Sequence record: PX880099.1
Origin: a phage
Length of the DNA: 64,000 bases
Reading direction: 5' to 3' (one strand)
Below are positions 2,386 to 62,500 of this stretch, piece by piece. Position 1 is the stretch's first letter; each line of letters starts with the position of its first letter. Both the position numbers and the translations under genes were made by a program. Under the pieces are notes generated by a model. It was not told the DNA's origin. It made no database searches and saw only the letters and a program-made list of their open reading frames with translations.

Positions 2386-2414
2386 TTGACAGGGGATCGG
2401 CGTTATATTATATT
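2386..2414 (+). promoter_or_regulatory. sigma70-like promoter (TTGACA-17-TATATT)
   Basis: TTGACA 2386-2391; TATATT 2409-2414. Confidence 0.5.
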
Positions 2415-2459
2415 TAACTTACTGGCAGCAAACAACGAAACGAAACAAAGGACAACATC

Positions 2460-2879
2460 ATGAACATTAAATCAAATAATCCAGCTTACTCCTTCGATAA
2501 CGCTTTTTGTCACGGTAGCGCCGCCAAAGGCTTCGAAATCGATGGTAAATTGGTTATCGTGAACGTTGACGGGGAAGAGGTTGCAGTGTATCCGGTAAAC
2601 GATGTTAAAAGCCGTTTACAATGCCGCATGGATGTTACCGCATATCAGCTTGATCCGGTCCGTGTAGTTGCCTTGGTGTTAGAGGAAGAGATCAAAGCAA
2701 TGCATCACAGTAATAAGTTTATTGGTGACGCGCAGGATAATATGAACGTTTGCCGCCATAAAGTTAATGAAGCATTGAAAGAATGCGGTTTTAAGGATCT
2801 GATGATTAAACGTGATGAAAAATTCCGCTTTCGTAATGACCTGGCAAACCGGATCTACTCAATCTATGAAGCGTTATAA
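2460..2879 (+). CDS. hypothetical protein (139 aa)
   Basis: ORF with SD AAAGGACAACATCATG. Confidence 0.55.
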   Translation: MNIKSNNPAYSFDNAFCHGSAAKGFEIDGKLVIVNVDGEEVAVYPVNDVKSRLQCRMDVTAYQLDPVRVVALVLEEEIKAMHHSNKFIGDAQDNMNVCRHKVNEALKECGFKDLMIKRDEKFRFRNDLANRIYSIYEAL

Positions 2880-2894
2880 TTGACAACAAAACAA

Positions 2895-2920
2895 GGGCGC
2901 ACCAAGCGCCCTTTCTTTTT
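2895..2920 (+). terminator. rho-independent terminator GGGCGCACCAAGCGCCC + TTTCTTTTT
   Basis: GC stem followed by T-rich tract; closes the left gene block. Confidence 0.65.
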
Positions 2921-3505
2921 GCCCGAACAATATTGATAGCTTTCGCCTATGAAAAACCGACACAGAACAAAACTGAATAAATCGCGGTATCGAGCTAATC
3001 AACCAGCAAACGAATAACCATACCTCCCAGGGTTACAGGCTGTTAGAGAGCCATTTAGAGCGGTTAAAATCGATCAACAACCAACAACAAACCATCAAAA
3101 ACACCCTTTTACCTCCTTTCTAGTGCAATGATAACCATTATCATCTACCCATGATTATCTATGCAATATAAGCGCATAATTATAATGTTGATAATAGTTC
3201 GCAACAACTAACCAACAAACAACATAAAACAATAAGCAAACTAATCATAATCAAAGGAATAATAGCAAGATGATTGATAACGACAAACAATCAAACCATG
3301 ATGAATACTAAGCAAGATAACGATAACACGACAAAACAACCAACTAACGAACAATAACAAACGAAACCATTAAAATAATAACTATTAGCAAAATAGTGCA
3401 TGAATGAAATCATTACAAAACGAATCATTCATAGAGTCATCATTAGCACGCTATGCCGGACACATAGCGAGCTAATAATAAGCCAACTACACCCCAACAA
3501 TCATA

Positions 3506-3568
3506 ACCATCGGTGATGGTTATTTCTTGTTACTGCGTAGCTTGCAATAATTGCAAGCGTAATGACGC
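3506..3568. repeat. cluster of short inverted repeats inside the ORF-free region
   Basis: ACCATC-GGT-GATGGT (3507-3521); GCTTGCAA-TAA-TTGCAAGC (3540-3558); GCGT-AATG-ACGC (3557-3568). Confidence 0.6.
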
Positions 3569-4200
3569 TTACACTTATTGCGCTGGCTTATTATTAGCAT
3601 TATATGTAATTACCAAGATCATAACATTAGCGCAATAACAATAATCATTGTGGTAATTACGTAAGGAAACAATTAGCATGGCAATAATTATGGGGGCAAT
3701 GGGAGGATGATTATCATCATTCCGATACATTGCACACTATGCACATAATAGAATAAAAAGCAATAATTTTGGGGGCGAAATGTTACCGCCACAGGCGGGA
3801 ATGTTGAGCAAGTTCTCTTAAACGTAAATAAAATCAGAATAATCTTGATTTATTTTAGTTTTTATGTTAATAAACGTTTAAATAATAATCATTCTCATAT
3901 AAATAATAGTCTGCTTGTCATGAGCGGGATTAGTTGACAATGTTCCGTCATATGATGAGGTTGCCAAGCCATTGATAAATAAGTGTTTGTGTGATTTATA
4001 ATCAGGTGGCCCACCTTGTCGCTATGTTGGCATGAGCCTTGCATAAGTCATTGAATACGAATGATAATTATTCTCATTCGCATGATATTTGGGAATTGTC
4101 GCTGCGTGGACCTGACGGCCCGAAAATTCGCGTTAAGCACTTCTTACGTATGCACCATGATTTTTGCCATATCATATTGATTCTATTAGATATTCTTGCC

Positions 4201-4392
4201 ATGATTGCCATGAAACAGGGTGTCCCGAAATAATCTCTCCCCGTAGATATTTTGGGTTACTTTTTATACAAGAGTGGGGTGTCAAAAATAATCGGTATAT
4301 ATGGGATAATTGATAGGAATCCCCTATGATAATTCGATTGTAATTCCCTAAGATTGATCGTATGATGTTGGTGATTAATGATTGCCATGAAA
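4201..4392. repeat. direct repeats upstream of first early gene
   Basis: ATGATTGCCATGAAA at 4201 and 4378; GGGTGTC(CCG/AAA)AAATAATC at 4218 and 4277. Confidence 0.6.
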
Positions 4393-4419
4393 GATGGCTA
4401 ACGATGAGAGGAGATTATC

Positions 4420-4794
4420 ATGCAAGAGAGTAAAAATGTTCCGTTGAGCAGTGCAACATTGCTTCGCTTCTATAAAGCATGGATTGCCAACTATCCTGCA
4501 ATGAATCGCACAACGAGTGGCTTATGTGGTTGTCTGGTAGATTATGTAGATGATTTTGTTGGTGAGACAACTAGAGAAGAAGATAGAAGATGGCGTGATC
4601 ATTTGTTGGACCGTTTGAAATATGAAATGAGGAAACAATTTACATGTGCAGGGTTGGACTACAATCTTCCGTTCAATGCAGATTGCATGGATTACCTTTC
4701 AGAGTGTATAAACTTGGCGTGTCATACCAACACGTTACGTCTTCAATGGGTGAAAGACAGAATTGAAGATGCAAATAATGCTTGCATTGAATAA
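4420..4794 (+). CDS. hypothetical protein, paralog family A (member 1 of 5)
   Basis: SD GAGAGGAGATTATCATG; shares FYKAW..GLCGCL..LPF..WVKDR motifs with 9603, 12928, 16225, 17530. Confidence 0.6.
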   Translation: MQESKNVPLSSATLLRFYKAWIANYPAMNRTTSGLCGCLVDYVDDFVGETTREEDRRWRDHLLDRLKYEMRKQFTCAGLDYNLPFNADCMDYLSECINLACHTNTLRLQWVKDRIEDANNACIE

Positions 4795-4843
4795 AGATGT
4801 TTGTATAATGGATGACATAACAGATAGCCAATGAGGAGATGAA

Positions 4844-5053
4844 ATGAAGAATTTGAAAACTGTCACAATGTTCTTGACTAATCCTACACGTGTGCAAGCA
4901 CTGGCTAAAGCCAGCCGTGTAGCTGTAGAATTCCAAAACTTTAAGCCGTCCGTTGTGACAGGCAGTGAAACGTGTGTTATCGATTTCATTAACGAATACT
5001 TCCGAGGGAATCCGGTTGGTCGTTACTTTATTAAGGGTCTGAAGGATGCATAG
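4844..5053 (+). CDS. hypothetical protein (69 aa)
   Basis: ORF with SD GAGGAGATGAAATG. Confidence 0.5.
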   Translation: MKNLKTVTMFLTNPTRVQALAKASRVAVEFQNFKPSVVTGSETCVIDFINEYFRGNPVGRYFIKGLKDA

Positions 5054-5986: not shown

Positions 5987-6173
5987 AGGAACTACTGTAT
6001 ATTTAGTGACTAAGAACACCCCAGGTTGGAATCAGTGCACAACGACTCCATATAAGATTTGTGCAACACTGGAACTAGCACAACGTGCAGAAGCGGAAGT
6101 TGATGCTATGCGATACAGCTACGGGGAGATCATTCCTTTCACTCTGGAACAAGAAGGAGCACATAGTGTTTAA
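5979..6173 (+). CDS. hypothetical protein (64 aa)
   Basis: SD AGGAGGAGAAAGTTATG. Confidence 0.5.
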   Translation: MNKGTTVYLVTKNTPGWNQCTTTPYKICATLELAQRAEAEVDAMRYSYGEIIPFTLEQEGAHSV

Positions 6174-6621
6174 GGTAGGGTTTACTTATAAATTCAAAAG
6201 CGTTGCTGACCAAGGAGATATGGCAACACATGACAAAGCAAATATTGCTGTTTGCCAAGCGATTGGAAACGAAGTTTTCAAAGTTATGAATACAGATGAT
6301 AAGTATGGTCATGTTCTTGAGTTTTATATCAATGGTACCCTCTATACAGCAGGTGTTACCCCAGGGTTTAATTCGTATACTTATTTGATTGATAACGAAG
6401 AATTTAAATATTTTGAAGAAGTAAAGGAGGAAACAATGGGTAAAGCAGAACCACAATGGCATGTTGTGATCGTAGGATCAGAGTGTGTAGATGTTTGTTC
6501 TAGTTTTGAAAAAGCTTCTGAAGTCGCTACAAAAGCTAAGAAGGACTATCCGTCGAAGACGGTTGAGATTTACGCTCGTGTTGCAGTAGCAAACGCCACA
6601 ATCACTATTGATAAGGAGTAA
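6166..6621 (+). CDS. hypothetical protein, tandem paralog family B (member 1 of 4)
   Basis: GTG start 6166 after SD GAAGGAG; N-terminus VFKVGFTYKFKS matches the MFKVGF.Y.FKS starts of the next three genes. Confidence 0.5.
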   Translation: MFKVGFTYKFKSVADQGDMATHDKANIAVCQAIGNEVFKVMNTDDKYGHVLEFYINGTLYTAGVTPGFNSYTYLIDNEEFKYFEEVKEETMGKAEPQWHVVIVGSECVDVCSSFEKASEVATKAKKDYPSKTVEIYARVAVANATITIDKE

Positions 6622-6626
6622 AGCCA

Positions 6627-7085
6627 ATGTTCAAAGAAGGTCATGTCTACCGTTTCCAGGATGAGGATTATATGCGACTATATTCTACCTTTGATAACAG
6701 TATTGCGGCTATCATTGGAGAGAATTTTTTCGAGGTGTTGAGCACTGATGCAAATGGTAATATCTTGTCAATGGTTGTAATAGGTATGAGAGATGGTATT
6801 ATCACTGCTGGTGATGGGGATCGTTACATAATCAATTCTGCTCATATAGATTATTTTGTTGACGGTGGTGTTCGTGGTGGTCGTGGAAAACCCCAAGAAG
6901 AACCTGTTGATACGACAAAAGAAGAGTGGTATGTTGTAATGACTGATGACACCTGTATTTCTGGATTTGAAAGTTATGAAGAAGCTTTGAAAGAAGCAGC
7001 AGAGCATAAAATGGCTAATCCTACAGAAGAGGTTGAAGTTTATAAACGTCTGGTTGTTGCTACCATCGGCGTATCTTTTGTTTAA
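6627..7085 (+). CDS. hypothetical protein, paralog family B
   Basis: N-terminus MFKEGHVYRFQD; C-terminal module WYVVM..YEEALKEA..VEVYKRLVV shared with family. Confidence 0.55.
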   Translation: MFKEGHVYRFQDEDYMRLYSTFDNSIAAIIGENFFEVLSTDANGNILSMVVIGMRDGIITAGDGDRYIINSAHIDYFVDGGVRGGRGKPQEEPVDTTKEEWYVVMTDDTCISGFESYEEALKEAAEHKMANPTEEVEVYKRLVVATIGVSFV

Positions 7086-7097
7086 AAGGGGAATGTT

Positions 7098-7883
7098 ATG
7101 TTTAAAGTAGGTTTTGTTTATAATTTCAAATCGGAAGATACCAAAAAGAATTTTGGTAAAGCTAGTATTCGTAACGCTTTCTTTGTAGGTTGCATTCAAG
7201 ATAGCAAGTTTAAAGTTTTAGATGTTGATTTTCTAGGTTCTGTGTCAAAGGTGAAGGTATTAGACACAAATAAGATCATCGAAGGTAGTTCTGGGCTTTT
7301 TCCTGAAGGCTATAAGCTTGTAAGTTGTATAGATTATAGTCGTTTTGAAGAACATCCTCCTGAAGATTATGAGGATTCTCCTACAGGAGGTTGTGTCTTT
7401 GTAGAAGGTGGTGTCTATAAGTTTGCAAGTGAACAAGATCGTAAGCTTTTCGCCAATTATATTGACGGCGGACAAACGACAAACAATGTAAACCGAAAAA
7501 TTTCCGATCTTATTGGAGATGATCCTTTCGTGATCACAAAGATGGTTGGACAAGATGTAACAGCAATCCGTAGGCTTGTATGTAATACAAATCATGTAGC
7601 AGGTGAAGGTTGGTTCAAAGAAGCTTGTGCACTGCTAATCAAAAGCGATAACCCTTACTTTAAAAATATTAAAAATGCTGTTGAGCCTAAACAAGAGGAA
7701 CCCGCAGCGAATTTTAAACACTATGCTATTGTTAAAGGTATGAATGTCCAACTGGTGTCACATTCTTACGAAGAGATCGCCACAGAAGCAAAAAAGATGA
7801 AGGAAGAATACCCAATTTCTACTGTTGAGATCTATGAGCGTATTGGTGTTGTTAGTATTGAGCCTACTGCGGTAATAAAATAA
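7098..7883 (+). CDS. hypothetical protein, paralog family B (261 aa)
   Basis: N-terminus MFKVGFVYNFKS; C-terminal ..YEEIATEAKK..VEIYERIGVV. Confidence 0.55.
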   Translation: MFKVGFVYNFKSEDTKKNFGKASIRNAFFVGCIQDSKFKVLDVDFLGSVSKVKVLDTNKIIEGSSGLFPEGYKLVSCIDYSRFEEHPPEDYEDSPTGGCVFVEGGVYKFASEQDRKLFANYIDGGQTTNNVNRKISDLIGDDPFVITKMVGQDVTAIRRLVCNTNHVAGEGWFKEACALLIKSDNPYFKNIKNAVEPKQEEPAANFKHYAIVKGMNVQLVSHSYEEIATEAKKMKEEYPISTVEIYERIGVVSIEPTAVIK

Positions 7884-59676: not shown

Positions 59677-59751
59677 GGCCCTGTAGCTCAATGGGAGAGC
59701 TGTCGGCTCATAACCGATAGGTAGCTGGATCGAAACCAGCCAGGGCCACCA
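59677..59751 (+). tRNA. tRNA-Met (CAT), elongator type or Ile-lysidine
   Basis: Hand-folded cloverleaf: acceptor GGCCCTG/CAGGGCC, anticodon loop CTCATAA, T-arm GCTGG-ATCGAAA-CCAGC, CCA encoded. Confidence 0.75.
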
Positions 59752-59753
59752 AC

Positions 59754-59828
59754 GTCTTTATGGTGTAATGGATAGCACAGGAGTCTTCTAAACTCTTAGT
59801 CAAGGTTCGATTCCTTGTAAAGACACCA
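59754..59828 (+). tRNA. tRNA-Arg (TCT)
   Basis: Acceptor GTCTTTA/TAAAGAC, anticodon loop CTTCTAA, T-arm CAAGG-TTCGATT-CCTTG, CCA encoded. Confidence 0.75.
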
Positions 59829-60024
59829 GAACATTTTAACATGAATTAGCTCAAGTGATTTGAACCCACTACTGATCATGGTGGCAGAGAATGAGGCAAG
59901 TATGTCAGAAATTATAAACAAAGGCCACGGTTATATTAGAAGACATAAATGCTCGAAGAGCACCGTTCGTGGAGAACGGGGGTTGGTGGAGTCACCATTC
60001 ATGGTAAAATGTTTTAAAAAACTA

Positions 60025-60059
60025 TTGACAACAAACATTATTTTATGTTAGATTATAAG
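60025..60059 (+). promoter_or_regulatory. promoter, tRNA-cluster type (TTGACA-N11-ATGTTAGATT)
   Basis: TTGACA 60025-60030; ATGTTAGAT 60045-60053. Confidence 0.5.
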
Positions 60060-60062
60060 TAT

Positions 60063-60153
60063 GGAAGGGCAAATCGACGTGGCGACGAAAACGGTCTTGA
60101 AAACCGCCGAGCTTGAAAGAGCCTTGGGAGTTCGACTCTCCCTCCTTCCGCCA
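60063..60153 (+). tRNA. tRNA-Ser (TGA), long variable arm, atypical D-arm
   Basis: Acceptor GGAAGGG/TCCTTCC, discriminator G, anticodon arm ACGGT-CTTGAAA-ACCGC like E. coli Ser-UGA, T-arm GGGAG-TTCGACT-CTCCC; D-stem could not be paired by hand. Confidence 0.55.
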
Positions 60154-60158
60154 GATTA

Positions 60159-60244
60159 GGTAGATTGGTGAAATGGTAGCCACAACAGTTTGCTAAACTG
60201 TAGTCGGAAACGGCGTGTAGGTTCGAGTCCTACATCTACCGCCA
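60159..60244 (+). tRNA. tRNA-Ser (GCT), type II
   Basis: Acceptor GGTAGAT/ATCTACC, anticodon loop TTGCTAA, long variable arm, T-arm GTAGG-TTCGAGT-CCTAC. Confidence 0.75.
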
Positions 60245-60415
60245 AGTTATCTTTAATGTAGCTTGTTGCTCTTAGTTGCTTGGTGTAACTTTTTGGAAGG
60301 ATGGCTGCAACCATCTTACTTTAATAGAGTAAACTTTCGGCAGATGGCCCCCACCATCTTACCGATACCTCATAGTCAGTGGTGCGAACACTGGCTATTT
60401 TAAAGATAATTTTAT

Positions 60416-60490
60416 ACATCGTTAGCCAAGCGGTAAGGCACTTGACTTTTAATCAAGGGAGCGAAGGTTCGAATCCTTCACGATGTACCA
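60416..60490 (+). tRNA. tRNA-Lys (TTT)
   Basis: Acceptor ACATCGT/ACGATGT, anticodon arm CTTGA-CTTTTAA-TCAAG, T-arm GAAGG-TTCGAAT-CCTTC. Confidence 0.7.
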
Positions 60491-60495
60491 AACAC

Positions 60496-60582
60496 GTAGG
60501 TATCGCATAGCGGCAATTGCTGGAGACTGTAAATCTCCTGCCCTTCGGGGCTTCGTTGGTTCGAGTCCAACTACCTGCACCA
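60496..60582 (+). tRNA. tRNA-Tyr (GTA), type II
   Basis: Acceptor GTAGGTA/TACCTGC, anticodon arm GGAGA-CTGTAAA-TCTCC, long variable arm, T-arm GTTGG-TTCGAGT-CCAAC. Confidence 0.75.
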
Positions 60583-60589
60583 AATTAAA

Positions 60590-60674
60590 GATGGATTGGC
60601 CTAGTGGTTGGGCGACGGACTGTTAATCCGTGAACGAAAGTTCTAGCAAGGTTCAAATCCTTGATCCATCGCCA
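60590..60674 (+). tRNA. unusual type II tRNA with anticodon GTT (Asn codons) on a Ser/Tyr-like scaffold
   Basis: Perfect acceptor GATGGAT/ATCCATC, discriminator G, 3-bp D-stem GCC/GGC, anticodon arm ACGGA-CTGTTAA-TCCGT, 15-nt extra arm GAACGAAAGTTCTAG, T-arm CAAGG-TTCAAAT-CCTTG. Confidence 0.6.
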
Positions 60675-60753
60675 AATAGTGCTTGTAGAGTTAATAGAAA
60701 CCTCTAGAATTTTCTAGAATTGTAGATATCAAATCCTACCAAGCAAATATTTT

Positions 60754-60828
60754 GCTCCTATCGTATAACGGCTATTACGGTTGCCTTGTAAGCAACTTAT
60801 CAGGGTTCGAGTCCTTGTGGGAGCACCA
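60754..60828 (+). tRNA. tRNA-Thr (TGT)
   Basis: Acceptor GCTCCTA/TGGGAGC, anticodon arm GTTGC-CTTGTAA-GCAAC, T-loop TTCGAGT. Confidence 0.7.
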
Positions 60829-60850
60829 ATTTAACTCTAAAGGAGTGTAT

Positions 60851-61174
60851 GTGACAGAAAAAGAGTTAGAGAAATATTTTAATATCAATGTTTTCGATGG
60901 TTTTGATGATATTGAAGATGTTGAAAGATATTATGAAGTAGAGTTAGATAAGGATAACATTGTAATTCTTTCTGCCACTTATGATTGTGCATATTATGAA
61001 GGTGAATCTCACGTTTATTTCTATGATATGAAAACATCTTTGTTTTATGAAGTACACGCATATCATTGTTCTTGTTATGGCTTAGAAGGTCAGTGGGAAC
61101 CTGAAGAAATAGGTGATTTGAGCTTTACGGTTGCATATCTAAACAGACGTGGTGCATCTACTATTTTAAAATAA
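60851..61174 (+). CDS. hypothetical protein inside tRNA cluster (107 aa, GTG start)
   Basis: SD TAAAGGAG then GTG 60851; track ORF (from TTG 60752) trimmed because it overlaps tRNA-Thr. Confidence 0.5.
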   Translation: MTEKELEKYFNINVFDGFDDIEDVERYYEVELDKDNIVILSATYDCAYYEGESHVYFYDMKTSLFYEVHAYHCSCYGLEGQWEPEEIGDLSFTVAYLNRRGASTILK

Positions 61175-61188
61175 ATATTAAAAGCCTC

Positions 61189-61218
61189 TTGACAAAGGGG
61201 CTAATAATATGTTAGAGT
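61189..61218 (+). promoter_or_regulatory. promoter, tRNA-cluster type (TTGACA-N11-ATGTTAGAGT)
   Basis: TTGACA 61189-61194; ATGTTAGAG 61209-61217. Confidence 0.5.
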
Positions 61219-61229
61219 AATATTGTTAA

Positions 61230-61304
61230 GCGGGTATAGTGTTAATGGTAGCATATGAGGTTTCCACCCTCCAGGTGCAGGTTCAAGTCCTGTTACTCGC
61301 TCCA
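61230..61304 (+). tRNA. tRNA-Gly (TCC)
   Basis: Acceptor GCGGGTA/TACTCGC, discriminator T, anticodon loop TTTCCAC, T-loop TTCAAGT. Confidence 0.7.
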
Positions 61305-61404
61305 AGATTATTTAAATGGAATCGCTAGAGAAAATTTCTCTTTTCGCTCATGGTTTTCTCCTTCAAACTCTAGCGGTTCTTTTTAAGTGATTTTTTAGTT
61401 TTAT

Positions 61405-61479
61405 TGGAGATTAGCCTAGTGGGAAGGCAACGGCCTTTGAAGTCGTGATGACTAGGTTCGATTCCTAGATCTCCAGCCA
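61405..61479 (+). tRNA. tRNA-Gln (TTG)
   Basis: Acceptor TGGAGAT/ATCTCCA (U1-A72 as in E. coli Gln), discriminator G, anticodon loop CTTTGAA, T-arm CTAGG-TTCGATT-CCTAG. Confidence 0.7.
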
Positions 61480-61486
61480 ATATTTA

Positions 61487-61562
61487 CAGTGCGTAGCGCA
61501 GTTGGTAGCGTGGGAGCTTTGGACGCTTCAGGTCGCAGGTTCGAGTCCTGCCGCACTGACCA
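61487..61562 (+). tRNA. tRNA-Pro (TGG)
   Basis: Acceptor CAGTGCG/CGCACTG (C1-G72), anticodon arm GGAGC-TTTGGAC-GCTTC, T-arm GCAGG-TTCGAGT-CCTGC. Confidence 0.75.
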
Positions 61563-61567
61563 AATTT

Positions 61568-61642
61568 GCAGAGATAGCTGAGACGGATTAGTGCTACCCT
61601 GAAAAGGTAGAAAGGATGGATCGTTACCATCTCTCTGCACCA
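61568..61642 (+). tRNA. tRNA-Phe (GAA), non-canonical T-loop
   Basis: Acceptor GCAGAGA/TCTCTGC, anticodon arm CTACC-CTGAAAA-GGTAG, T-arm GATGG-ATCGTTA-CCATC. Confidence 0.6.
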
Positions 61643-61719
61643 AATAACACCATCCAAGGAGTAGACTTGGTTAACTGTCAATAGCACATTGAGGCTTCTT
61701 ACAGTGGTGTACTTATTAT

Positions 61720-61804
61720 GGCTAAGTGGTGGAATGGTATACACGATACGCTTAGAACGTATTGCCCCAAGGGATTGTGAGTTCGAGTCTCACCTTAGCT
61801 ACCA
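61720..61804 (+). tRNA. tRNA-Leu (TAG), type II
   Basis: Acceptor GGCTAAG/CTTAGCT, discriminator A, anticodon arm ATACG-CTTAGAA-CGTAT, long variable arm, T-arm GTGAG-TTCGAGT-CTCAC. Confidence 0.7.
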
Positions 61805-61819
61805 AATTATTAGATGTTT

Positions 61820-61898
61820 CGCGGGATAGAGGAGTCTGGTCGTCCTCGCCAGTTTCATATGCTGGAGATCGTTGGTTCAAATCCAACTCCCGTTACCA
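61820..61898 (+). tRNA. initiator-like tRNA-fMet (CAT)
   Basis: 5' CGCGGGA like E. coli initiator CGCGGGG; 1:72 mismatch (C/U); A11:U24 in D-stem; anticodon loop TTCATAT; T-arm GTTGG-TTCAAAT-CCAAC. Confidence 0.55.
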
Positions 61899-61917
61899 AA
61901 TTTTGCAAGGAGATAAA

Positions 61918-62331
61918 GTGACAGCCAAGAAATCAGCCCAGTTGGGAATGAACGTAAGTACCGCTACGGGCAGGTTAACAAAAGATATAATGTGGCGACT
62001 GATCGTTCAGACAAATCAGAACATGTGCTTTCATTGCGGTAAAGAAATGACGAGAGAAGACTTCTCCATCGAGCACAAAGTTCCTTGGTTGGATAGTGAA
62101 AACCCACAAGACTTATTTTTTGACTTGGACAATATTGCTTTCAGTCACTTATCCTGTAATGTTGCCGCAGCACGTAAGCCGAACAAAGGTATTATTCCTC
62201 ATGGAACATCATCAGGATATGATACTCACAAATGTAGGTGTGATGCATGCAAAGCAGCAAAAGCTGCAAGACGTAAAAAAGAATACACACCAGAAAAGCG
62301 CAGAGCAACTTACGAGCGTACTGGTAAATAG
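61918..62331 (+). CDS. HNH homing-endonuclease-like protein inside tRNA cluster
   Basis: CFHCGKEM...IEHKVPW...NIAFSHLSCN; GTG 61918 after SD AGGAG; track ORF (from 61762) trimmed because it overlaps tRNA genes. Confidence 0.65.
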   Translation: MTAKKSAQLGMNVSTATGRLTKDIMWRLIVQTNQNMCFHCGKEMTREDFSIEHKVPWLDSENPQDLFFDLDNIAFSHLSCNVAAARKPNKGIIPHGTSSGYDTHKCRCDACKAAKAARRKKEYTPEKRRATYERTGK

Positions 62332-62336
62332 ATAAT

Positions 62337-62419
62337 AGCCGGGTAGATTTAAAAGAGTATGGTACTCAATATGGCTCCAAACCATAGATCAGGGGGTTCG
62401 ATTCCTCACCTTGCTGCCA
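62337..62419 (+). tRNA. tRNA-Trp (CCA)-like, irregular (possible pseudo-tRNA)
   Basis: Anticodon arm TATGG-CTCCAAA-CCATA matches E. coli Trp loop; T-arm GGGGG-TTCGATT-CCTCA; acceptor AGCCGGG/CCTTGCT has 1 mismatch; extra nt between acceptor and D-stem. Confidence 0.35.
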
Positions 62420-62424
62420 ATTAT

Positions 62425-62500
62425 TGTGGTATCGTACAGATGGTTAGTACACTCGACCGATAATCGAGAAACAACGGTTCGACTCCGTTTACCACGACCA
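62425..62500 (+). tRNA. tRNA-Ile (GAT), C33 in anticodon loop
   Basis: Acceptor TGTGGTA/TACCACG, D-arm GTAC-AGATGGTTA-GTAC, anticodon arm CTCGA-CCGATAA-TCGAG, T-arm AACGG-TTCGACT-CCGTT. Confidence 0.55.

Follow-up and report, generated by a model that had tools for sequence, protein, structure and literature searches.

A gene-free gap in a phAPEC8-like Escherichia coli myovirus as a probable terminal control region with a conserved structured element

Why does a phage genome that is otherwise tightly packed with genes leave some 1.5 kb without any, immediately before its early genes? The question is raised by a stretch of 64,000 nucleotides (nt) of phage DNA (sequence record PX880099.1; here, the window), which belongs to a Phapecoctavirus, that is, a phAPEC8-like E. 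coli myovirus of the subfamily Stephanstirmvirinae. The gap extends from the stop of an upstream gene of 139 amino acids (aa) at 2879 to the start of the first early gene at 4420. An original prediction, made from the letters of the sequence, had offered a replication origin, a packaging or injection-control site, or a non-coding RNA locus. We propose, with a probability of roughly 0.7, that the gap is the terminal control region, or concatemer junction, of a myovirus with short direct terminal repeats (DTR), and that signals for the terminase lie in the non-coding DNA of the right end. From the termini of close relatives and from a structure conserved beside them we infer the roles proposed below.

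Genome ends of relatives within the gap

The gap is free of credible open reading frames (ORFs), as had been claimed: the longest one between 2879 and 4420, on either strand, has 64 aa. Seven small ORFs gave no match to PHROG, and most of them are disrupted in three divergent relatives. The homologous ~1.5 kb is unannotated in phAPEC8, ESCO13, DE16, Schickermooser, ukendt, nepoznato, AV125, EcG1, Ro121 and ZCKP1, and none of the relatives has a conserved gene here. Many Phapecoctavirus records are 95-98% identical to window 2400-5000.

Two of these relatives have their physical ends inside the gap. The Schickermooser record starts at the base corresponding to window 3807 and ends at 4135, both ends being an exact 329-bp repeat; the Mt1B1_P17 record, from another laboratory, ends at 3807 and 4134 with an exact repeat of 328 bp. 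The same sequence is present at both ends of each. In a search with the gap as query, many linear records were found to end at one base (query 1255/1256, window 4134/4135), at least six of them besides Schickermooser and P17. The two repeats share sequence (96-97% identity to window 3807-4135), boundaries and genome organisation with the window, a circularly joined assembly that contains the DTR (3807..4135, 328/329 bp) as a single copy. The passages of the reports that deal with genome ends give 328 bp for the Schickermooser repeat, from PacBio read ends, the genomes having been linearised where most reads stopped abruptly (Korf et al., PMC6563267), termini set with PhageTerm for P17 (PMC10470868), and a 342-bp DTR, again by PhageTerm, for Justusliebigvirus BME3 (PMC12210895). 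These passages state only that the repeat exists. DTRs have been described as general in the subfamily (PMC12695924).

The position of the relatives' termini at 3807 and 4134/4135, together with the exact repeat, argues that the gap is a concatemer junction, which would consist of ~930 bp of non-coding DNA from the right end (2880-3806), then the DTR (3807-4135), then a leader of ~280 bp at the left end (4136-4419). The original prediction was right in naming a packaging site as a candidate. The gap it described is real, and its identity as a genome end with a short terminal repeat was already known for the genus; by its sequence the region would be a member of the short-DTR class. A T5-like injection stop, suggested for comparison, was rejected: the repeat is gene-free and measures 328 bp instead of ~10 kb, the end and the non-coding region are not separated by a pre-early gene block, and the early genes begin 285 bp past the DTR.

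The cuts fall in short conserved sequences (a caret marks the cut), as judged from an alignment of 13 relatives of the window, three of which are only ~77% identical to it overall. On the plus strand, the left terminus and DTR boundary (3800..3826) reads AATGTTG^AGCAAGTTCTCTTAAACGTA, with the cut between 3806 and 3807, where the Schickermooser and Mt1B1_P17 records start or end; the record of VEcB, a Justusliebigvirus from a different laboratory, starts at the base homologous to 3807. The right terminus and DTR boundary (4120..4150, plus strand), to which record ends also map, reads GAAAATTCGCGTT(A)^AGCACTTCTTACGTA, the cut being CGCGTT(A)^AGCACTTCTTACGTA. TGTTG^AGC and CGCGTT-N-AGCA are kept in 13 of 13 relatives, including the ~77% identical ones, and in VEcB, whose right-boundary homologue is GAAAATCGCGTTA^AGCACC at ~346. 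In the ~77% relatives AAAATTCGCGTT-N-AGCA forms an island of conservation, so the cut sites persist where the surrounding DNA has diverged. A similar sequence, ...TTATGTC(A)^GACAAGTT, bounds the repeat annotated in the record of the vequintavirus Gotham. The in-register GTTR^AGCA at the two cut sites is no more than suggestive.

Immediately left of the DTR, at 3681..3812 on the plus strand, a unit of ~79 bp with the structure GGGGGC(G) - hairpin - (C)ATTG/ATGTTGAGCA occurs twice in tandem (direct repeat D11), and the second copy ends at the left cut. The hairpins occur in three unrelated sequence variants, all of which fold: CCGCC-ACA-GGCGG, ATCGC-GTA-GCGAT and GGATTGCC-AAC-GGCGATCC. The first of these is the GC hairpin CCGCCACAGGCGG that had been noticed in the window; we confirm it at 3786..3798, where it precedes the left terminus by 8 nt (its DNA fold has -5.6 kcal/mol and z ~-3), and relatives have either of the other two in its place. 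Across relatives the module is present in one to three tandem copies (two in DE16), and in nepoznato a 139-bp insertion after window 3800 brings the number of GGGGGCG-hairpin-ATGTTGAGCA units to three, no two of which have the same hairpin. In Gotham, too, a hairpin (TGTGAC-AGTTAG-GTCACA) stands 7-8 nt ahead of the repeat boundary, and a GTGTAAAC repeat array precedes it. Modular units of the type GGGGGCG - variable GC hairpin - ATGTTG^AGCA, ending at the left cut, appear to be new.

A conserved structured element and a palindrome cluster

Constraint is unevenly distributed over the gap. The palindrome cluster at 3461-3610 retains 90-99% identity in the relatives, the three ~77% ones included. 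Nowhere is the gap more variable than in the 126 bp that precede the DTR (3681-3806), which are only ~55% identical in 10 of the 13. Since the right-end block stays at 90-100% where identity of the DTR interior, in the three divergent relatives, is down to ~50%, the strongest constraint appears to act on the right-end unique DNA and not on the terminal repeat. In several phages the flanking genes on both sides have been swapped and the non-coding block has been kept.

Within the genus, the most sequence-conserved part of the gap is a G-poor, A/C-rich spacer (3060..3440, plus strand), 92-100% identical even in the ~77% relatives. A bias towards A and C had been ascribed to the plus strand of the whole gap. 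It holds for ~2880-3480 (A+C 0.59-0.78, with a peak at 3280-3379) and does not from 3480 on (0.42-0.54), and it is better described as a depletion of G, which makes up 10% of 3060-3440 against 19% of the whole window. G is also depleted in VEcB (4.5%), KP2025 (11%) and Tr1 (9%), without alignable sequence. Tandem Repeats Finder returned only short, low-score arrays from the gap; a 128-bp periodicity suggested by a repeat finder was not significant (66/200 shuffles), and no iterons were found. In four relatives an 18-nt insertion after window 3399 duplicates a small hairpin, CTATT-N5/6-AATAG (3382-3396), with a different loop, and looks like a further duplication of a hairpin module.

The spacer is followed by a conserved structured element of ~170 nt (3436..3607, assigned to the minus strand), for which RNAalifold gave a consensus on both strands. 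In plus-strand coordinates, it consists of hairpins H1 (3449-3469) and H2 (3503-3523), in which the sequence varies and pairing is kept, a 15-bp closing stem (3471-3485/3584-3598), a junction helix (3488-3491/3537-3540), an invariant palindrome, H3 (3540-3558), and a poorly defined variable arm (3555-3582). The short palindromes reported earlier at 3506-3568 were recovered as the hairpin at 3503-3523 and the perfect palindrome at 3540-3558, both of them helices of this structure. The inner end of the closing stem is found as AAGCCA/TGGCTT, AACGCA/TGCGTT, AACACA/TGTGTT or ACCGCA/TGCGGT, and VEcB and KP2025 have a different perfect hairpin inserted at an identical point of the element.

The alignment on which the fold is based holds 18 distinct sequences, among them IMG/VR and metagenome copies found with the invariant palindrome as anchor. 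Three metagenome matches to this anchor (L032, L035 and L041) were chance matches and were dropped, and an IMG/VR search with the upstream protein gave only 3 loci. Over the 18 sequences 98% of the cells are paired and 13 pairs are changed on both sides, which none of 500 shuffles matched; when the partners were slid by 1-3 columns as a control, pairing fell to 27-50% with 1-4 two-sided changes. Minimum-free-energy z-scores of the single sequence are -8.8 for the minus strand and -6.9 for the plus strand. The stretch 3436-3607 has, in short, a conserved secondary structure with compensatory changes.

A sensitive search with 3040-3620 recognised only 3439-3562 (~80%) in Justusliebigvirus and in unclassified Klebsiella and Citrobacter relatives, and on this comparison the element seems to be conserved across Stephanstirmvirinae. 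No second copy was found in the window and no match in 5,426 E. coli genomes. Searched over the whole window at the gathering threshold, Rfam returned only transfer RNAs (tRNAs); at a permissive threshold over 2700-4600 its best sub-threshold matches were eukaryotic small nucleolar RNA and microRNA noise, and the element matches none of its families. The element appears to be new, apparently undescribed and outside any described family. The passages and record annotations that concern the ends of Schickermooser, Mt1B1_P17, BME3 and Gotham mention neither the element nor the hairpin and cut-site modules nor the palindrome cluster.

A probable distant copy lies in a second subfamily. The upstream gene has a homologue in rV5 (92% identical in amino acids; 89-92% over the rV5-like phages), and after it comes a 2.6-kb box, marked 'non-coding' after ORF164 on the genome map (Kropinski et al. 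2013, PMC3606486). This box shares with the gap its place after the homologous gene; unlike the gap it is 2.6 kb long and lies between convergent gene blocks, and BLAST detected no DNA similarity between the two. A covariance model built from the 18 element sequences matched over its full length in 4 of 4 rV5-like loci (18-29 bits, E 8e-6 to 4e-3); strand and relative position agree with those in the gap, and the matches keep the helix order, the UCCG loop and the GGGGGUG motif. According to this model, the rV5-like loci probably carry a distant copy of the element. In Gotham, whose 459-bp terminal repeat_region is known from the record annotation only, the element is modelled at 656-840, 196 nt from the repeat; the window and Schickermooser have 200 nt between the two, VEcB ~250 nt. 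This near-constant spacing in two subfamilies is the chief argument for a role in cis in end recognition. Among the rV5-like phages, the genome of rV5 has been described as circularly permuted, but a 459-bp terminal repeat is annotated for the related Gotham, and the records of bov22_2 and Pr121LW also end within the rV5-homologous non-coding box. Vequintaviruses in general may have short DTRs at this box.

The gap also gathers palindromes that resemble the Fur box. A scan allowing up to 5 mismatches to the 19-bp E. coli consensus GATAATGATAATCATTATC, with the 7-1-7 core TGATAAT-N-ATTATCA, placed 8 of the 11 matches of the window within the gap, which makes up 2.4% of the window. They represent 6 distinct sites, against 0.22 expected (0/300 shuffles), so that matches to the consensus of the Fur operator cluster beyond chance. 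Five related junction regions are likewise enriched, and every Stephanstirmvirinae junction tested has 3-5 sites, matching at up to 17/19; the same consensus scan gave no enrichment in the rV5 non-coding box. The palindrome TGATAAC-C-ATTATCA at 3124..3148 (15/19) has a homologue in phiWec188, and VEcB has similar ones upstream of its G-poor tract. Two others are located inside the DTR. One, at 3878..3898, is ~75 nt from the left end (14/19; 17/19 at the homologous VEcB site). The other, GAATGATAAT-T-ATTCTCATTC at 4057..4081, lies ~55-75 nt from the right end, comprises two overlapping matches (14-15/19) and is kept in VEcB, PaulScherrer and phiWec188 (17/19). The Gotham DTR holds a similar palindrome, AATGATAGGTATTCTCATT. 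Such a cluster of Fur-box-like palindromes at a junction appears to be new.

These palindromes could be genuine operators of the host Fur, which would couple early transcription or end handling to iron status, or titrate Fur as genome copies build up. Like real E. coli Fur operators, they match at 14-17 of 19 positions and are palindromic, clustered and often overlapping; their excess over shuffles and their recurrence in each junction fit the proposal. However, most copies have ATTCTCA in place of the Fur-preferred ATTATCA, which, together with the similar palindrome in an rV5-like DTR, suggests a phage-specific lookalike of the Fur box. Unlike E. coli Fur boxes, they lie inside a phage terminal repeat; they do not overlap the best promoter-like sites of the leader, and no precedent was found in the literature on Fur boxes in virulent phages. 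We think that host operators are possible, and we lean against them; Fur binding is a prediction. The binder could be Fur or a phage protein, and a Pfam search of the neighbouring early proteins, which detected no DNA-binding domain, neither supports nor excludes a phage-encoded one.

Competing explanations of the right-end DNA

How the element would act depends on the strand that folds. In H1 and H2 all the non-Watson-Crick pairs are A.C on the plus strand, which are G.U on the minus strand; H2 has wobble pairs at about four independent positions and no plus-strand G.T. In the junction helix, read on the minus strand, (G.U, C-G) alternates with (A-U, U.G). The variable arm gives mixed strand signals, and the strand call is for this reason only probable: the element probably folds as a single-stranded minus strand, as RNA or DNA, and the matter is not settled.

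It is tempting to go further and to see in 3436-3607 an independent gene for a non-coding RNA, with leftward transcription off the minus strand and a product that acts in trans, on host factors, in defence or as a packaging cofactor, instead of as a signal in cis. The covariation is of the RNA type, with G.U wobbles confined to the minus strand, the z-score is strong, and the size and multi-helix architecture are typical of structured RNAs. Moreover, rut sites are C-rich and G-poor, and the minus-strand transcript downstream of the element would be C-poor and hence presumably a poor substrate for Rho. Nevertheless, a sequence scan of the gap found on the minus strand no convincing or conserved promoter upstream of the element and no clear terminator downstream, and a literature search found no RNA sequencing and no usable transcriptome for these phages. 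Across genera, the sequence of the palindrome at 3540-3558 and of 10 bp of the closing stem does not change, a sign that these stems may be recognised by sequence and not through pairing alone. Nor would an RNA acting in trans explain why the element keeps nearly the same distance from the DTR boundary in two subfamilies. We consider such a gene unlikely. As for the non-coding RNA locus of the original prediction, the fold at 3436-3607 is supported by covariation and is compatible with RNA, and its transcription is predicted only.

A bolder form of the packaging hypothesis would have a structured minus-strand RNA used by the terminase or prohead to find and cut the junction, an RNA cofactor common to Stephanstirmvirinae and Vequintavirinae, with the Fur-box-like sites linking end processing and early transcription to a host regulator. 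Taken as a whole it seems to us quite unlikely. Among known systems, the element recalls the packaging RNA (pRNA) of phi29 in its ~170 nt, in its place a few hundred bp from a chromosome end and in a structure better conserved than the sequence, a general likeness that implies no membership. Unlike the phage studied here, phi29 has protein-primed replication and a different motor, and any link of the element with transcription or with the motor would be by analogy.

The right-end block could also be a replication element, either a single-strand initiation (priming) signal or an origin, with hairpins on the displaced minus strand. A strand-specific multi-hairpin structure of ~170 nt resembles the general architecture of single-strand initiation signals, and it adjoins an AT-rich, strand-skewed tract near the chromosome end. 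Against this, the gap has no iterons, its DnaA-box near-matches occur at the background rate, and it contains no identifiable primase or PriA site. The large-scale switch in GC skew is at 22-24 kb, far from the gap; reversals of its sign, seen at ~20-24 kb and near ~60 kb, probably follow changes in gene orientation, and within the gap the skew shows only a local dip at the A/C tract. The replication origin that had been put forward was accordingly rejected, and we give little credence to a replication element of any kind.

That the gap is a decayed protein-coding gene, or a set of unrecognised small genes, is hardly credible: some automatic annotations do call ORFs of 30-80 aa (PsgM04F, Tr1, Nernie, ETEC-TG), but no frame exceeds 64 aa or matches PHROG, the frames are broken in divergent relatives while non-ORF DNA keeps 90-100% identity, and the stem substitutions are compensatory, with no sign of protein-coding constraint.

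Several observations nevertheless weigh against a terminal control region as we describe it. The termini of this particular phage are taken from relatives 96-97% identical across the repeat, and the connection between the element and packaging comes from position and sequence and not from experiment. The rV5-like matches are weak (18-29 bits, with rough E-values). The spacing between element and cut is not strictly fixed, as nepoznato has 139 extra bp between them. In unconstrained local alignment, the similarity between the left and right cut sites was not significant (p = 0.40 for the window, 0.026 for the commoner variant); short-pattern counts of the boundary similarity were underpowered. 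The missing minus-strand promoter counts here as well. Finally, recognition of double-stranded DNA by the small terminase subunit needs no compensatory changes, whereas the covariation demands a single-stranded state.

With these points in mind, we still favour the terminal control region, and we hypothesize that it works as follows. The virion chromosome would start at 3807 and end at 4134/4135, so that 3807-4135 would be present at both ends and only once per junction in replicating concatemers. The terminase would recognise signals in the right-end non-coding DNA. Of these, the structured element is the likeliest to serve in recognition or assembly; it would be read as a single-stranded minus strand, either a transcript or DNA that replication or transcription has laid bare. 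The left cut would be positioned by the small GC hairpin. Cutting or nicking at GTTG^AGCA and GTT(A)^AGCA would then be followed by duplication of the 328 bp between them through DNA synthesis, as in T7 and T3. After injection, the left end would offer the promoters of the leader to the host RNA polymerase, and a dimeric protein, host Fur or one of the phage's own, would bind to the palindromes and organise or regulate the ends.

This arrangement is close to that of T7 and T3 (the 'DTR short' class of PhageTerm). Common to them are an exact terminal repeat of a few hundred bp that the junction contains once, ends that appear to be fixed, non-coding repeat arrays flanking the repeat, early promoters (predicted ones in the window) just inside the left end, and a recognition signal expected in right-end DNA beside the repeat (PMC3276506, PMC13236587). 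In fact, packaging of T7 phagemids requires a pac site as well as the terminal repeat (PMC13236587). The differences are also clear. The phage is a ~150-kb myovirus, and its putative flanking signal is a 170-nt covarying multi-helix element and not a polymerase pause site; unlike in T7, the strand that presumably folds runs leftward, opposite to T7 transcription. To our knowledge, no phage RNA polymerase has been reported or annotated in this phage group.

Surroundings of the junction and implications

The left-end leader before the first early gene (4136..4419, plus strand) has three sigma-70-like sites (4205-4234, 4263-4292 and 4338-4366), which may serve as promoters; in a consensus scan the number of such sites was at chance level (11 found, 10.3 expected), and the scan for terminators gave no excess over chance either. 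Both direct repeats that had been described ahead of the early genes were recovered, ATGATTGCCATGAAA at 4201-4215 and 4378-4392 (repeat-finder family D8) and GGGTGTC..AAATAATC at 4218-4235 and 4277-4293, and a 24-bp tandem repeat occupies 4305-4354. VEcB, from the other genus, has kept both copies of the GGGGTGTG..AAATAA(T) pair; GGGTGT-N4-AAATAAT is not enriched elsewhere in the window. Four copies of the motif ATT(A/G)TTGCCATG are present: an inverted one at 3677-3690, a tandem pair at 4192-4213, and one at 4376-4392 that closely precedes the ribosome-binding site of the first early gene. An early regulator may use the motif as its operator.

The first early gene itself is variable. The window has one gene of 124 aa (4420-4794) where Schickermooser, phAPEC8, AV125 and Ro121 have two (345 + 369 nt), and only the first ~33 nt are common to both arrangements. 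Further on, three consecutive early proteins, encoded at 6085-6618, 6627-7082 and 7098-7880, all match phrog_3710, the longest also giving weak goF-like N-terminal matches, and by these matches they would form a small paralogous family.

On the other side of the gap, a bidirectional intrinsic terminator (2893..2913; 8-bp stem with 6 GC pairs, T-runs on both strands) closes the right-end gene cluster; it is annotated as such in phAPEC8 and Schickermooser and kept in VEcB. A conserved block, ATTGATAGC..CCTATGA ... ATCGCGGTATCGAGCTAATCA, follows at 2930..3003, with 88-99% identity in most relatives. It is still recognisable in VEcB, the ESCO13 record starts within it, and its ATAGN7-8CTAT motif occurs again at 4309-4337 (family D4). 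The 139-aa gene upstream (2454-2881) shows ~84% DNA and ~90% protein identity to ORF164 of the rV5-like phages, which belong to another subfamily, and the likeness ends precisely at the gene edges; in ukendt, nepoznato, AV125, ZCKP1 and EcG1 an unrelated gene of 369-384 nt replaces it. From these comparisons, the gene looks like a cassette exchanged beside the genome end. Host labels look doubtful in the records of the Campylobacter phage MG0656xx series, of Pseudomonas phage PsgM04F and of Acinetobacter phage ABPW7, which in this region share 80-99% identity with a Phapecoctavirus or Vequintavirus of E. coli. Far from the junction, 14 tRNA genes cluster at 59677-62500, every one of them on the plus strand.

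Phapecoctavirus, Justusliebigvirus and rV5-like phages are widely isolated and are used in phage-therapy cocktails against E. coli. Many of their records are deposited as if permuted, with arbitrary starts, and automatic annotation sometimes adds spurious small ORFs in this region. The ends, the cut sites and the neighbouring signal give a rational basis to orient and annotate these genomes, and ~3436-4135 is a candidate for the smallest packaging cassette that could be used in transduction or in the engineering of phagemids. The cluster of palindromes makes it possible to test whether a virulent phage is connected to an iron regulator of its host. The structured element, in turn, could provide a concrete, mutable handle on end recognition in short-DTR myoviruses without an RNA polymerase of their own, a process so far worked out only for T7 and T3.

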